From the NCBI GenBank assembly GCA_951406725.2, contig OX597829.1:36642001-36706000 (forward strand): a stretch of 64,000 nt of DNA, in the 5' to 3' direction. Positions within the stretch are counted from its first letter, which is position 1, and the number at the start of each line of letters is the position of its first letter. This document shows positions 4,130 to 48,991 of this stretch, piece after piece. A program made the position numbers and the translations under genes. The DNA is from Octopus vulgaris. Its lineage: Eukaryota. A model generated the notes under the pieces. It was not told where the DNA came from. It made no database searches and saw nothing but the letters and a program-made list of their open reading frames with translations.

Positions 4130-4400
4130 CTACATTATTTACACTCGACGGATATACGTCCTCATCTTGTTGTTAACACAACGTTTCGGCTGGTATACCT
4201 TCCAGCCTTCAACAGGTGTCTTGGGGAAATTTCGAACCTGGGTTCTCATTCCTAAGGTATTTTTCAATGTTGTGGTGGTTGTTGTTATTATTATTAATAA
4301 TAACGTTGTGTTAACAACAAACAGGATGAGGACAAATATAGTCAAATGTAAATAATGTAAATAATGCACATAATTCCTCATCTCTTGAATATAGAACTGT
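4130..4400 (-). mobile_element. PLE pseudo-LTR-like unit with inverted partial duplication
   Basis: 4135-4185 is inverted at 4301-4365. Homologous to 40509-41213 and 48631-48991. Confidence 0.7.
4175..4220 (-). ncRNA. Minimal hammerhead ribozyme-like motif (core variant)
   Basis: Minus strand: gacac CTGTTGA a ggctgg aaggtata ccagcc GAAAC GTT gtgtt. Stems I and II pair, stem III is the palindrome AACGTT, and the core has A6>U. Confidence 0.55.
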
Positions 4401-12999: not shown

Positions 13000-14020
13000 G
13001 AATTTGCCTACAAAAAAGATAAGGCAGGTATTTTCTGATTATATACATTTATTAAAAAATTATTGCATGCTCTATTATCATTTAGCTTATACATACATGC
13101 ATGCATCCGAGAAGAAAACGGATTCAAGCCATCAATGGAATTGTAAAAATTTGTAAAACTATCCAGAAGTTTATCATGTAAGTATATATACGCATCTGTA
13201 GACAAGCAACTATATACATGAGAAAAACATAGTAACTAGTCAAACACAGATCTTAAGCAAAAGACAATGACATAACCTAAAGAAACTATTAACAAGGGTA
13301 AAATTCATCACGAACAAACAAGATAAAACATTCACAGTATTCAAGTTTAATGATAACAGGTGTGGAACGTGTCAATACATGCATACAGGTAGATCTATTA
13401 GAACAAAAAATAGACAGATTTTCACAAATGGAGAAATGAACTGCAAAAGTAGAAATTTGATCTTCTGCATTAAATGCCCTAATTGCGAGGAACTATATAT
13501 TGGTGAGACAGGAAATGCATTATCGGAATGTTCACGAGTTCACGGACAACAAATCTAGAACATTAATATTCGCTAAATTCCATTGAGTGAACATATAGAA
13601 ACATGTGATCAGAAAATGTTCTAAGTTTTCCTTTCCACAAACTACATGACATTTTAAAATGTTCAAACCTGTTCTGGGCGGAAATAAAAAATAATATAAT
13701 AACCAGTTAATGGTGTGGATTAAAAAAAATATCTTTAAAATATGAATTTAAACAAACTACAGAAGACACTCACCGATTAAAATAAAAACGATTGAAACCA
13801 AGTTTGCTCACTCATAAAACCATTACATGTAAACCGCAAGTTAATTGGTTAAAATAAAGGCGAGATTTATGCCAGTAATATCGGTGCGCCCGACAAACCC
13901 TGACGTTTAAGGTGCATGCTGACTAGTCATTTTACTACATTTATTAAGAACTCAACTGTCAGTTAAATACATTTTGAAGTCTGATGATTACTACGAATGT
14001 AGCAAAGCGATAAATCAACC
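13000..14020 (+). mobile_element. Penelope-like element 3' fragment (GIY-YIG endonuclease remnant plus degenerate HHR)
   Basis: 13466-13560 reads CIKCPNCEELYIGETGNALSECSRVHGQQI, homologous to 44167-44679. CTGATGA followed by a hairpin at 13981-14003. Confidence 0.8.
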
Positions 14021-30444: not shown

Positions 30445-30557
30445 TATATATATATATATATAAAAGAAAAGAAAATTTCTCTCAGATAATGTTTACTCCA
30501 GACAGCTCACGGAGGTTTGGAGGTAAATACAGAAAAATATCACAAGTACATAGATCG

Positions 30558-30620
30558 TTTGAGTACGTCAACGTTTCAAGATTAGCCAAATAAAATCAGC
30601 ATTTCTTTCGTCAGCTCAAA
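30558..30620 (-). ncRNA. Mirror copy of the hammerhead ribozyme in the left palindrome arm
   Basis: Exact reverse complement of 30647-30709. Confidence 0.85.
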
Positions 30621-30646
30621 ATTTCTTAATTTCCAAATTAAGAAAT

Positions 30647-30709
30647 TTTGAGCTGACGAAAGAAATGCTGATTTTATTTGGCTAATCTTGAAACGTTGAC
30701 GTACTCAAA
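30647..30709 (+). ncRNA. Type I hammerhead ribozyme, intact core
   Basis: tttgag CTGACGA aaga...tctt GAAAC gttgac GTA ctcaaa. Predicted cleavage after 30703. Confidence 0.85.
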
Positions 30710-30996
30710 CGATCTATGTACTTGTGATATTTTTCTGTATTTACCTCCAAACCTCCGTGAGCTGTCTGGAGTAAACATTATCTGAGAGAAATTTTCTTTT
30801 CTTTAAGTAGTAGAAATTGCTAAAAAAAATTTTTTTTTGGCTGCTATTTCTACTTAGTTCAGTATGTGGCAAAGTAATTTATTTTACTAAGCCCTAATTA
30901 TATAATGTAATATTTTGAATTCGCCTTAAATGGTCCTTTTACATACTGAACACTTGGTGAAATTGATTAATTAATTAATTTTACCCTCAATTGTTG

Positions 30997-33959: not shown

Positions 33960-34294
33960 CAATAATAAAATAATAATAAGGGTAAAATTAATTAATCAAT
34001 TGATAATTACTAATTTTAACAAGTAGTTCGGTATATTAAAAGAAACATTATCGGTAAACTTATACAATTTTTTTTATAATTATAAGTATAATTAGGGCTC
34101 AGCAAAATTGCTTCACTACATACCGAAATTTAGAAATAGCAGTTAAATACTATTCTATACCATATGATATCTCCCCGACACATACTCCCAACTCACGCAG
34201 GCAAAGAGAAAAAATAACGTATTCCACCTGGCTTTGATTAACTATATACGCGTATTGATTAACTATATACGATATTGATAAATCGGGTACTGTT

Positions 34295-34542
34295 GATCAT
34301 GTAAGATGAAGTTAAAATAATAGACAGAGAACACCACTGGAAAATACGAAAACTAAAAGAAGCAGCACATATGCTAGGACACAACAACCTCCTAAGCAGA
34401 CCGTGTGCAGATATGAGTAGCATATGGGAACCAGGATAGGAGAATATTAGATTTATAAGCCATAAAATTCACTCCATAATTGCCCACGTGCATATGGCGT
34501 TGTGGTTAAGAGCGCGGGCTACTAACACCAAGATTCCGAGTT
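34295..34542 (+). mobile_element. PLE endonuclease C-terminus followed by a tRNA-like sequence
   Basis: EVKIIDREHHWKIRKLKEAAHMLGHNNLLSRP, then tggcgttgtggttaagagcgcgggctactaacaccaagattccgagtt at 34495-34542. Confidence 0.72.
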
Positions 34543-35345
<803 letters not shown>

Positions 35346-35629
35346 TATACAATACGAAGAGCACGGTGCGATTGCAATAGATATTCGATTGGTTGAACGA
35401 TATTTCGACAACTAGCCTGTCTTTGTCGAGTTCTAAATGAAAAGTGATTACATAAAAATTAAAAATTATAGAAATTGAAATCCAAAATTTGAACGAGGAC
35501 AACCAGCGTTCCCACGTTGACGAAATGACATTATCAGTCATCAGTTTTTAAGTTTACAACTGGCAAAAAGAAAAAGAAAGAAAAAAAACGAAGAAAAGGG
35601 AAAAAAAGGAAAACGAACAATATTTAATC

Positions 35630-35975
35630 AAACAGTCAGTTTTGTGTAAATATAAAATTCTCCCGTCATTTTATTCATCCCTTCAGGGCGTGATCTTAAC
35701 TCGTAAGCATATTTCTCCCCGTGCATTTTGGGGAATGAAAGTGTAGCAGATTCAGAATATTTTCTGAGAATATGCACTTTCAAGTCTTTTTCAAAATTGC
35801 AGCCGTTTGATGTAAAATTTTTGGCAAGTTCTGTCGAACTATTGTTATTGTGCCCGACGTCATATTTGTGCCCATTGAATCTTTTGTTTAATTGTTCTGT
35901 TGTACCATCAACATATATCGAGTTGTGCTTGGTGCATTCTGCTGCATACACTAAATGGGAAACTCTACACGTGTT
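35630..35975 (-). mobile_element. PLE GIY-YIG endonuclease fragment
   Basis: TCRVSHLVYAAECTKHNSIYVDGTTEQLNKRFNGHK...PEGMN. Confidence 0.85.
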
Positions 35976-36299
35976 ACCTTCAAGGCGGTGCTCTAGCATG
36001 GCCACAGTCAAATGACTGAAACAAGTAAAAGAATAAAAGCAATAGCCTCACACGCATAAACACACATACAAGCACTCATAAATAGATACAAATACATATA
36101 TATTTCTTCGTATGCACAGCAAAGTTCCCAGGCATACACTATTAGAAATATTACTAATAAAATAATTGGAAATATGTACATAGACTGTTTGTTTTAATCG
36201 TTTATATATTGTTGCATAATTATAGAATTATATTTTGTAGAATATGTTAAAGATGATGTCAAAAAGAGGAGAAATAGAAAAAATAAATAAAACCTGATA

Positions 36300-37694: not shown

Positions 37695-38280
37695 AACTTG
37701 AGTTGACAATCAGCAAAGTTTGCTTTAAAAGCCTTGAGATGTATTGAAAGATACAGATAAGGAAATAATTTTATTCTCAAATGCAGGTTAATACCATTGA
37801 TATAGCATGAACATGATAAACTATCCATATTTTGCAGATACATCTGTCGGCGGCTAGCCATGTGACTCAAACTCACATCTCTGTGATTACGCGTCAAGTG
37901 CTTTACCATTAAGCTAAACTGCATTTGAGAATAAAATTATTTCCTTTATCGGTATCTCTCAATACATCTCAACGCTTCTAAAGCAAGCTTTGTTGACTTT
38001 CAACGCGTGTTGTATTTAACGTGTGATAGCGTCTTATAAAGTTAAATTTATATATCCTAAATTTGCAGAAGAATTTGTCGTTGGGGCAGTTTAGCTTAAT
38101 GGTAAAGCGCTTGACGTGTAATTACAAGGATATGAGTTCGAGTCTCATGGCTGGTTGCCGACAGATTTTTCTGCAAAATATGGATAGTTTATCCTTTTCA
38201 TGCTATATTATTGGCATTATCCTGTGTTTGAGAATAAAATCATTTCCTTATTTGTATCTTTTTATACATCTCAACGCTAA
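37695..38280. mobile_element. Divergent pair of tRNA-headed repeats with an extra tail copy
   Basis: Plus copy 38087-38280 (tagcttaatggtaaagcg...gagttcgagtc), minus copy 37695-37922, tail duplicate 37921-38005. Confidence 0.8.
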
Positions 38281-40508: not shown

Positions 40509-41213
40509 ATTATTTACATTATTTACATTATTTACATTATTTACATTCGACGGATATTTGTCCTCATCTTGTTTGTTGTTAATACCCTCCAGCCTCCTTC
40601 AGGTTCTCATTCCTAAGGTATTTTTCGAAGTTGTTGTTGTTGTTGTTATTAGAAGTGGCTGTGTGGTAAGTAGCGTGGCACCTTGGGAAAGCGTCTTCTA
40701 TTATATCCTCGGGCCGACTAAAGCCTTGTGAGTGGATTTAATAGACGGAAACTGAAAGAAGCCCGTTGTATATGTATATATAAGTATATGTTTCCGTGTA
40801 TGTTTGTCCTCCCAGCATCGCTTGACAACCGATGCTAGTGAGTTTACGTCACCGGAACTTAGCAGTTTGACAAAAGAGATCGATAGAATAAGTACTAGGC
40901 TTACAAAGAATAAACTCTGGGTCGATTTGCTCGACTATAAAGGCAGTGCTCCAGCATGGCCGCAGTCAAATGACTAAAACAAGTAAAAGAATATTATTAT
41001 TATTTTCTAGGTCACTGCTTGAAATCAAACTCGAAATCTTGGGGTTAGTAATCCGCGCTCTTAACCACTACGCCAAATTCCTGTGGGTATAAGGCTGGAG
41101 GGTATATCAGCCGAAACGTTGTGTTAACAACAAACAAGATGAGGACAAATATCCGTCGAATGTAAATAATGTAAATAATGTACATAATTCCTCATCTCTT
41201 AAATATAGAGCTG
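40509..41213 (-). mobile_element. tRNA-head/HHR pseudo-LTR unit with inverted partial copy, interrupted by a SINE
   Basis: Minus copy has the tRNA-like head at 41009-41075 and tail at 40509-40650. Plus partial copy 41091-41213 contains ggctgg..tcagccGAAACGTTgtgtt. Confidence 0.78.
40652..40990 (+). mobile_element. SINE family A (internal deletion in head)
   Basis: Matches 10598-10997; inserted in the (TTG/TTA)n tract of the host unit. Confidence 0.9.
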
Positions 41214-41397
41214 AAGTAGTTTGTTGTTTTACCAAACCGTTGAAGATATCACGATCGAATTAGGTTCATTAATATACTAAAGTGTTTTAATCGACTATAA
41301 CAGTTCCATTATTTGTCATTACTTGCATGAAAGGTGGATGAATTGACAGAATCGGTAGTGGTGGAGGAAATACCCCGCAGTATTTAATACGATCTTT

Positions 41398-43940: not shown

Positions 43941-44166
43941 ATATGAGTATAATTATAATTAGGCTTAGGCAAAAATTTTTCTTCACCACACATCGTGTTC
44001 GGTGTGTAGTGAAGCAAATTTTTTTACCTAACCCTAATTATAATTATACTCATAATTATAATAAATATTGTGTAAGTTTACCGATAATGGTCTTTTTAAC
44101 ATACCGAATACTACTTGGTGAAATTATTAATTATTAATAAATTAATTAATTAATTAATTTTACCCA

Positions 44167-44679
44167 GTGAAATACTGCATAATAAACAGTAAACGCCAAG
44201 AGAAAAATCTGAAAAAACAACTGACAAGAGCAAAATTCTCATCAGAGAATGAAACTGAATTCCTTGTAAAAGAATGTGGAGATAGTAGATGTGGGATCTT
44301 CAGTAACCACATTTACAAATATATAGAGGAAAACAGCCAAATAAAATTTAAGAGTGGACACACATTCAAAGCACATGCAAACATGAATTGCAAGATACAA
44401 AATTTAATATATTGCATAACCTGTCCCACATGCAAGGATAACTATATAGGTGAAACTGGCAATTCTTTATGCCAACGAACCAGAATTCACCGACAACATA
44501 TCCGACATGGAGAACTACAAAAAATTCCACTAAGTAAACAATTAGAAACATGTGGAGAAGGAAGATTCAAGATCTCCCCCTTCTATAAAGGCCCAAGAAA
44601 TGATACCTTCCTCAGAAAAAATATGAAACAACATTTCATATCAAAATTCTCCCCCCAAACTGATTGGCTGAAAATATGA
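44167..44679 (+). pseudogene. PLE GIY-YIG endonuclease domain (5'-truncated, open for 170 codons)
   Basis: NLKKQLTRAK, CGDSRCGI, NCKIQNLIYCITCPTCKDNYIGETGNSLCQRTRIHRQHI. Confidence 0.92.
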
Positions 44680-46992: not shown

Positions 46993-47117
46993 TTTAATTT
47001 AAATTTATTAATAACTCACGTTATGTTCGTCTTTTGAATGAGGCAGGGCATTCAAATGTAAGAACGCACATGGTGTAATGTGAAGAATATTTCAGAAATA
47101 GCGTATTCTGTGTTAGG

Positions 47118-47176
47118 TCCAGCTGATGAGCTTAAGTATTTTTTAAATACACAAAGCGAAATCTATAGATCCTGGA
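47118..47176 (+). ncRNA. Type I hammerhead ribozyme, intact core
   Basis: tccag CTGATGA gctt...aagc GAA atctatagat C ctgga. Palindromic stem III, AUC cleavage triplet (C47171). Confidence 0.9.
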
Positions 47177-47504
47177 ATATACACATCCTTACTTATGTAT
47201 TCCATGCAAGGTAAGCCTGTCTCTGGTTTGTTTATCGCATTCACCGTGTGTATTTTTATAGTGGTTTAGAGCGACAGCTCTGTTCATAGCAAGTTGTATT
47301 TCAGTACCCTTCTGTATTTTATTTATATTTTACCTATAGATATCTAATCTTGCTAGCCACTTTATTATTAACATTATTTTAAATAATATTAGTGACACTT
47401 ATTAAATTTAAATATATATATATATATTTATATATGTAAAGGCACTTATATATGTGTGCAAGCTTGTGTCTATGTATATTTAAGAACTCTTATACGTATA
47501 AATC

Positions 47505-48630: not shown

Positions 48631-48675
48631 AAAGGTATTTTTCGATGTTGTTGTTATTATTATTGTTGTTGTTGT

Positions 48676-48715
<40 letters not shown>

Positions 48716-48850
48716 ATTGAGGTCACTCCCTGGAATCAAATTCGGAATCTTGGGGTCAGTAGCCCGCGCTCTTAACCGCTACCCCATGGCGTATTGGTTA
48801 AGAGTGCGGGCTACTAATCCCATGATTCCGAGTTCGATTCCAGGCAGTGA

Positions 48851-48936
<86 letters not shown>

Positions 48937-48991
48937 GCAACAACATCGTAAAATATCTTAGAAATGAGAACCCAGGTTCGAAATTTCCCCA
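48631..48991. mobile_element. Head-to-head dimer of the tRNA-like/(AAT)n unit
   Basis: Symmetry centre ccatgg at 48784-48789. Plus head tggcgtattggttaagagtgcgggctactaatccc..gagttcgattcc, then (AAT)n, then gaaatgagaacccaggttcgaaatttcccca as in the 4130-4400 unit. Confidence 0.85.

Follow-up and report, generated by a model that had tools for sequence, protein, structure and literature searches.

Judged from its sequence, an abundant protein-coding element of the octopus genome is a Penelope/Poseidon-type PLE with a reverse transcriptase (RT) and a GIY-YIG endonuclease, and fixed behind its ORF is a composite pseudo-LTR (pLTR) in which a tRNA-derived head leads through an (AAT)n microsatellite into a hammerhead. 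We lean towards the view that the head is a Pol III promoter, and that the numerous short copies of the repeat would be run-off products of internally primed reverse transcription. A broken copy of the element lies in the 64,000-nucleotide stretch of DNA analysed here (the window), on the contig labelled C16 of the 2.8 Gb genome (227 contigs) that was searched. The copy is made up as follows.

34271-34303, plus strand: 5'-most remnant, endonuclease coding sequence, 88% identical to the natural copy L320 and followed by a deletion of about 30 nt
34305-34458, plus strand: C-terminal end of the GIY-YIG endonuclease encoded by the PLE ORF, from translation and alignment to L320
34459-34487, plus strand: 3' UTR of 29 nt, from the folds of four natural copies
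34488-34542, plus strand: tRNA-derived head, tRNA positions 1-55, with A box, loop and partial B box
34543-35340, plus strand: a separate repeat of about 600 bp ending in (AAT)n, not part of the PLE, which replaces the rest of the window copy

The original prediction placed a PLE endonuclease end ahead of a tRNA-like head at 34295-34542, and this was borne out by matches to the RT-bearing homologue P0001 and to L320, a full-length natural copy, as well as by the family-wide junction described below. Translation of 34305-34436 gave 44 amino acids that were 67% identical (29/43, E 5e-21) to the C-terminus of P0001, and 34305-34556 was 87% identical to the 3' part of L320. An early TAG at 34437-34439 results from an 11-nt deletion private to the window copy; the stop codon of the family corresponds to 34456-34458, 29 nt upstream of tRNA position 1 (34488). 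The head contains an A box (34495-34505), an anticodon-like loop (CT-ACT-AA, 34519-34525) and the first five bases only of a B box (34538-34542), the different repeat beginning at 34543. In the folds of four natural copies the end of the UTR (34481-34487) pairs with tRNA positions 1-10 as a palindrome or hairpin. The UTR together with the last ORF codons (34444-34487) also resembles a decayed inverted copy of about the first 48 nt of the head, a match reached by 3 of 1000 shuffles, and it is possible that this is a scar of head capture.

The repeat of about 600 bp is joined to the window copy at a common 10-nt word. It was present in 30 fetched loci, L100, L117, L175, L207, L219 and L325 among them, has a fixed start and ends in (AAT)n; in all but one of the 10 other listed matches that extend into its start region, the start comes directly after an (AAT)n-type tract or at the end of the locus. 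It often sits inside the PLE's own microsatellite, and pieces of non-LTR ORFs with a restriction-like endonuclease end, which we take to be of the Dong/R4 type, lie 3' of the PLE (AAT)n tract in L036 (from oriented position 2755 onward), L130 and L075. The position of these pieces suggests that the tract is a landing site for other retroelements.

A genome search with 34295-34543 returned 3,287 candidates, and all 40 places scored were collinear across the junction; since the query itself selects for the junction, this is not an unselected test of linkage. At sites anchored on a 19-mer of the UTR the head followed in 29 of 30 cases, and a chance SINE insertion at the window locus was rejected on the basis of both results. 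Downstream of a head 19-mer, the body was found at 74 and the hammerhead region at 70 of 90 sites, these being the first 90 of 5,491 listed head sites, all on contig C1 and including a few duplicates and both arms of some insertions. The intact order, head-(AAT)n-ATG-minimal hammerhead-tail-2.3-kb ORF-UTR-second head, was present in L440; a pLTR also lies on both sides of the ORF in L444 (body on both sides), and the tail-to-ORF junction was found in further copies. The composite pLTR predicted from the window is thus fixed behind the PLE ORF, and the proposed genome-wide check of the collinearity of ORF, head, (AAT)n and hammerhead gave a positive answer at the UTR junction, at the hammerhead region and, for the whole order, in L440. 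The two conditions that the original prediction had named as evidence against itself, unrelated flanks upstream of other heads and a tail without a conserved hammerhead core, did not overturn it.

Exact matches genome-wide numbered 11,652 for the tail, 5,491 for the head and 1,060 for the UTR, with none for reversed controls; corrected by the exact-match rates of the three words (105/270, 37/117 and 32/73, respectively), they give estimates of about 30,000, 17,400 and 2,400 arms. No older subfamily was obtained from a genome search with the most diverged copy (L349), and a protein search with a 43%-identical relative gave only the head-bearing family and no headless sister family (30 loci fetched). 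At C2:16238319-16238937 the UTR-head border motif occurs four times, three of them at 150-bp spacing, possibly as a tandem array of part of the unit.

Upstream walking, with motif order read by translation, showed that the ORF past the repeat covers about 2.3 kb and encodes an N-terminal domain, an RT and, at the C-terminus, a domain of GIY-YIG type. In the 569-aa frame of L058, Pfam RVT_1 was matched at E 2.7e-6, just below the cut-off; the endonuclease was not called by Pfam in L058 and was called in the homologue P0069. The closest proteins are 55-68% identical to the family protein. Starting at an ATG 70 nt upstream of the predicted cut site, the frame stays open through the hammerhead, and a homologue with 55% identity (P0003) has a similar starting peptide. 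An extra Zn-finger linker of the Neptune/Nematis type was not seen by eye in L058. What lies outside the head and microsatellite amounts to only the 29 nt of UTR and about 35 nt ahead of the ATG; a T-rich intron region is absent, in contrast to the controls, for which we used 79 loci of related PLEs in other organisms (29-48% identity). It is by its domain order, pLTRs, hammerhead and tail that we class the element as a Penelope/Poseidon-type PLE. No copy with an unbroken full ORF was seen, 569 aa being the longest open frame, and the family therefore looks dormant.

The hammerhead was found in 243 matches, in which the core columns are 93-99% conserved outside CpG and N7 is the sole free position; 45 of 199 copies that span it are fully intact. 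The features of the minimal type are all present, namely the core, a bulged base after position 9, G10.1-C11.1, a long helix II, a helix I of 4-5 bp and a palindromic 15.2-16.2. Helices I and II fold in L061, and the 15.2-16.2 palindrome pairs in a self-dimer. Rfam at default settings gave no match for the family hammerhead in the window or in L061, the window list being swamped by microsatellite miRNA models. By these features it is an ordinary minimal hammerhead of PLEs, a type that on its own is a poor cleaver (PMC4209133; literature is cited throughout from the available parts of each paper) and which in a relative was dispensable for in vitro insertion (PMC11167929). Copies of the element end either 53 or 84 nt after the cut site, 31 nt apart, and RNA reads leave the element loosely at the same two points. 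One long and one short tail were combined in 46 of 53 inverted pairs, a count in which overlapping loci may enter a pair twice. PLEs carry a tail of 30-40 bp at one end (PMC8557442), and we identify the two end points as this tail.

The three other insertions in the window are all head-to-head arm pairs.

48632-48787, minus strand: inverted arm of a head-to-head insertion, with head, microsatellite and start of the body
48787-48991, plus strand: direct arm, with head, intact B box (48830-48841), (AAT)n and ATG region
40518-41078, minus strand: arm in which the head (41078-41010) is kept, a SINE (about 40652-40992) interrupts the (AAT)n, the hammerhead is deleted and the tail is present
41091-41215, plus strand: opposite arm, with the 3' part of the hammerhead and a long tail
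4131-4302, minus strand: headless arm, with (AAT)n, body, hammerhead with one core change and short tail
4302-4400, plus strand: opposite arm, with the end of the hammerhead and a long tail

These copies had been predicted to lead from the head through (AAT)n into a hammerhead. The path is tiled by the three copies jointly, but no single copy spans the whole of it: the arm at 48787-48991 stops 6 nt short of the CUGAUGA core, and none of the window copies combines a head with an intact hammerhead. The upstream cccac context, said to be common to the copy at 41075-41090, is present.

On tRNA numbering the A box occupies positions 8-18 of the head and the B box positions 51-62, and the positions of the promoter that are invariant agree in column counts taken over 153 heads. 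The head is identical to the genome's tRNA-Arg(TCG) at 49 of 73 positions (z 7.2), the best of seven isotypes sampled, with Arg(TCT) and Ala near. ARAGORN and Rfam at default settings did not call it, and with relaxed settings ARAGORN recognised the plus-strand head of 3 in a set of 30 copies. The sequence fails to form a cloverleaf (z +1.5), the acceptor and T stems no longer pairing. A functional tRNA was rejected on the missing default calls and cloverleaf. A pattern search for A and B boxes together found them in none of the 79 control loci. One locus, L186, holds seven tRNA-Cys-like genes and pseudogenes within 3 kb.

The 5' ends of the copies cluster at the head. At 62 of the 90 head sites the copy starts between 7 nt upstream of and 7 nt inside tRNA position 1; of the rest, none starts 8-11 nt upstream, 4 start 12-35 nt upstream, 12 at least 62 nt upstream and 12 deeper in the head. 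(A looser scoring of boundaries at 30 sites, which placed 14 and 15 of 30 within -12 to +3, overshot in AT-rich flank, and the stricter scoring of 90 sites was used.) Two to seven nucleotides upstream of position 1 are kept in 34 of the 90 copies. Two ORF-bearing copies retain the upstream head entire; they begin at +1 (L440) and +4 (L441), and the flank there is unique. Of UTR-anchored copies, only 8 of 30 were lost over the next 70 nt. An inverted arm accompanies 45 of the 62 clustered starts, in many cases with the junction at the palindrome across position 1, and genome-wide the fold-back motif was matched 1,081 times (palindromes counted twice) against 511 for the read-through motif; the other 17 lack such an arm, so that the pile-up needs more than fold-back to account for it. 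Palindromes at the 5' end of the pLTR and inverted junctions are also known in Penelopes that have no tRNA (PMC3846280), so that the pile-up marks the boundary of the repeat, not the polymerase. The tandem copies L107 and L118 begin upstream of the head, indicating that longer RNAs existed.

The sense strand of the element is poor in TTTT, the Pol III stop. Over 2,251 columns of the ORF no T4 run was common to more than 6 of 37 copies, compared with 28 common A4 runs, and in the repeat body a T4 run occurred in at most 18 of 388 copies. L320 has no TTTT in 2,590 nt, where shuffles gave a mean of 3.5 and 6 of 400 shuffles gave zero. Synonymous shuffling of 25 family frames gave an expectation of 40.5 TTTT against 12 observed; for 78 control frames 559 were expected and 631 observed. 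The spacers between ORF and hammerhead in the controls are T-rich, and 2-12 T4 runs were present in 16 of the 17 (out of 79) in which a hammerhead downstream of the ORF allowed the spacer to be bounded. Four of the 79 controls lack T4 in the matched ORF stretch, and an intact-looking one (L255) has one T4 in about 2.3 kb; the low-TTTT controls L244, L246, L255 and L283 showed no boxes, and three of them have T-rich flanks. A T4 or longer run lies within 40 nt downstream of 33 of 40 tRNA calls of the same genome. Because the family copies descend from one master, the TTTT deficit counts as one observation, with p about 0.015-0.05.

Short units outnumber UTR-linked units about 7:1 (17,400 and 2,400, estimated). 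The two non-CpG subfamily variants, at head position 64 and at hammerhead N7, occurred at similar rates in the 109 long and the 138 short units compared (p 0.17 and 0.71, respectively) and are linked alike in both, each class containing both haplotypes. The divergence of short units was 3.5-3.9% and that of long units 4.2-5.0%. A few columns, including a CpG and a small gap, differed at a nominal p of 0.01-0.04, uncorrected for the many columns compared. The shared subfamily variants and age argue that the short form is not a separate SINE but a product of the same masters. The SINE-like self-cleaving derivatives of the original prediction need recasting: short copies dominate, but they do not form an independent SINE lineage, and their hammerhead is of the ordinary minimal type. 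In three RNA-seq runs mapped to L320, depth followed the gradient of the DNA contig, both directions were equal and 73-79% of the reads entered unrelated flank. No pile-up of read starts was detected at the head or cut site in these runs, in which the libraries were probably unstranded, the species was uncertain and reads were cut at (AAT)n. The signal is passive transcription of old copies and is uninformative on Pol III.

Given that most copies begin at the tRNA, the element likely uses the head as a Pol III promoter, as had been predicted; the boxes, the clustered 5' ends and the lack of TTTT speak for this, although the support is indirect. One could envisage that transcription by Pol III begins 2-7 nt upstream of position 1 and, as no TTTT stands in the way, continues through the 2.3-kb ORF and the next repeat. 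RT would then start inside the RNA at the tail, as in the anole Poseidon element, where it needs ORF sequence beyond the start site (PMC11167929). A start at the first tail would copy about 270 nt and run off at the RNA 5' end to give the short SINE-like copies, a start at the second tail would give long, mostly 5'-truncated copies, and two cDNAs ending in the self-complementary 5' palindrome could anneal to produce the head-to-head insertions. Translation of an uncapped RNA would be the weakest step; it might be cap-independent from the A-rich leader, or protein might come from Pol II read-through of some copies. As to origin, an ancestral pLTR may have had its T-rich Pol II promoter/intron region supplanted by a tRNA-(AAT)n retroposon that brought a 5' fold-back of its own. 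In its fullest form, that of an autonomous coding element with an end-to-end Pol III transcript of about 2.7 kb from a captured tRNA promoter, purged of TTTT, translated without a cap and shedding SINE-like 5' copies, the proposal is tentative and we doubt it more than we trust it. Kojima (2024) has argued that Pol III is too weakly processive for autonomous elements (PMC10886601), which counts against a Pol III-driven coding element.

Another reading is that a tRNA-(AAT)n SINE inserted and hitch-hiked in the pLTR of the master, that Pol II carries out transcription, through host read-through or from a promoter that has escaped recognition, and that the palindrome makes the 5' pile-up through fold-back or annealing of cDNA. 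The inverted arm at 45 of the 62 clustered sites, the excess of fold-back over read-through motifs, the palindromic junctions of tRNA-less Penelopes (PMC3846280) and the purely passive RNA-seq signal agree with such a passenger, and a capped RNA would solve the problem of translation. We nevertheless regard it as unlikely, if still worth serious consideration, since the 17 non-inverted copies and the full-length L440 also begin at position 1, the boxes were kept while the stems were lost, the whole unit lacks TTTT, unlike the controls, and little other than the 29-nt UTR and the 35 nt or so before the ATG is left outside head and microsatellite, with no T-rich intron region.

The numerical excess of short units and their slightly lower divergence could also reflect an independent, PLE-dependent SINE whose short head-to-tail unit amplifies from its own copies, the ORF-linked form being a chimera made once. 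This is improbable, as short copies have no diagnostic variant, each haplotype is found in long as well as short units, and the head was present on every ORF end examined but one; moreover, short copies stop where RT starts and would be missing the ORF stretch farther downstream that the anole protein requires (PMC11167929). Little credence can likewise be given to a role of the head as an RNA structure and not a promoter, whether because a longer Pol II transcript is cut at position 1 in the manner of RNase P, or as a translation or RT-binding element. The centring of 5' ends on position 1 and the placement of the head just ahead of the start codon region fit such a role, but the acceptor and T stems no longer pair, and 34 of 90 copies keep the 2-7 nt that a cut at +1 would remove, some of which fold-back can restore.

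Schistosome Sm-alpha, which combines Pol III boxes with a hammerhead, was the analogue named in the original prediction; closer ones are provided by Cassandra/Helenus and Poseidon. The anole Poseidon PAc and EN+ PLEs share with the octopus element a single ORF (N-terminal domain, RT, C-terminal GIY-YIG), pLTRs and the passage of the ORF through a minimal hammerhead (PMC11167929; PMC8557442; PMC3846280), and Penelope/Poseidon EN+ PLEs also share two 3' ends about 30 nt apart and inverted 5' copies joined at palindromes. In contrast to PAc, the octopus pLTR starts with the tRNA head and (AAT)n where the PAc type has a T-rich promoter/intron region, and its ATG lies 70 nt, not 26 nt, before the cut site; unlike Poseidon, the element is without sense-strand TTTT and is dominated by repeat-only short copies with one common 5' end. 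The TRIMp3 elements Cassandra, Helenus and Ajax likewise have a small-RNA-derived Pol III promoter inside the terminal repeat, with boxes kept and tRNA function lost, for which an origin by SINE insertion into the repeat was proposed (PMC10886601). They are, however, non-autonomous LTR elements of 0.3-1.3 kb, whereas the octopus head is fixed in a protein-coding PLE (RT-EN, PLE ends), and their autonomous partners must use Pol II according to Kojima (2024) (PMC10886601).

Like tRNA-derived SINEs, the short units have an A/B-box head at the 5' end, a length of about 270 nt, tens of thousands of copies and a 3' end in common with the mobilising element; unlike them, they are not a lineage separate from the autonomous element, and they have PLE-type ends and inversions. 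Octopus tRNA-derived SINEs (OK, OR1 and OR2) were reportedly described by Ohshima and Okada in 1994. OR2 is a CORE SINE (PMC5804259; PMC4758252). Non-LTR retrozymes resemble the octopus units as short type I hammerhead units related to PLE pLTRs (PMC7229834; bioRxiv 10.64898/2026.07.22.740005), but retrozymes and Sm-alpha are non-coding tandem arrays, whereas the octopus units are dispersed, single or head-to-head, tied to an ORF and equipped with a minimal hammerhead; no tandem non-coding hammerhead array was encountered among the octopus units sampled. The available parts of the two retrozyme papers make no mention of a tRNA head or Pol III, and the available part of the octopus repeat annotation gives Penelope families without a tRNA-head feature (PMC13282606). 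Our literature search found no tRNA-bearing coding PLE, though Repbase, Dfam, SINEBase, Ohshima and Okada (1994) and the supplement of PMC13282606 may hold the family, and the use of a tRNA as a Pol III promoter was something we saw reported solely for non-coding parasites, for example SINEs.

A Pol III promoter is regarded as the mark of a short non-coding parasite. A coding Pol III element, if true, would run counter to this rule, and one would have to ask how a protein of about 850 aa is made from an uncapped RNA. Ribozyme-driven cap-independent translation in viruses (PMC13725137) is a possible parallel, though in the octopus element the cut site would be 70 nt into the frame. The 5' end of the RNA appears to be fixed and can be recognised, and thousands of insertions therefore record where RT started and stopped, making questions about the PLE cycle testable, including the source of the pLTR, the formation of head-to-head inversions and the role of the hammerhead. 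Annotators should be aware that SINE-looking repeats can be the pLTRs of a PLE.

The window contains several neighbouring features of other kinds. A different hammerhead lies at 47106-47194 (plus strand; 36.5 bits and E 1.4e-5 with the Rfam HH9 model, short of the gathering score), and a tRNA-like gene with a degenerate anticodon arm at 38084-38159 (plus strand) was called Tyr(GTA) by ARAGORN and Rfam (33 bits). GIY-YIG-like ORF fragments of other PLE families occur at 35628-36047 (minus strand), 44158-44679 (plus strand) and 13271-13558 (plus strand), and a perfect 170-bp inverted repeat with a 2-nt spacer is present at 30463-30804.
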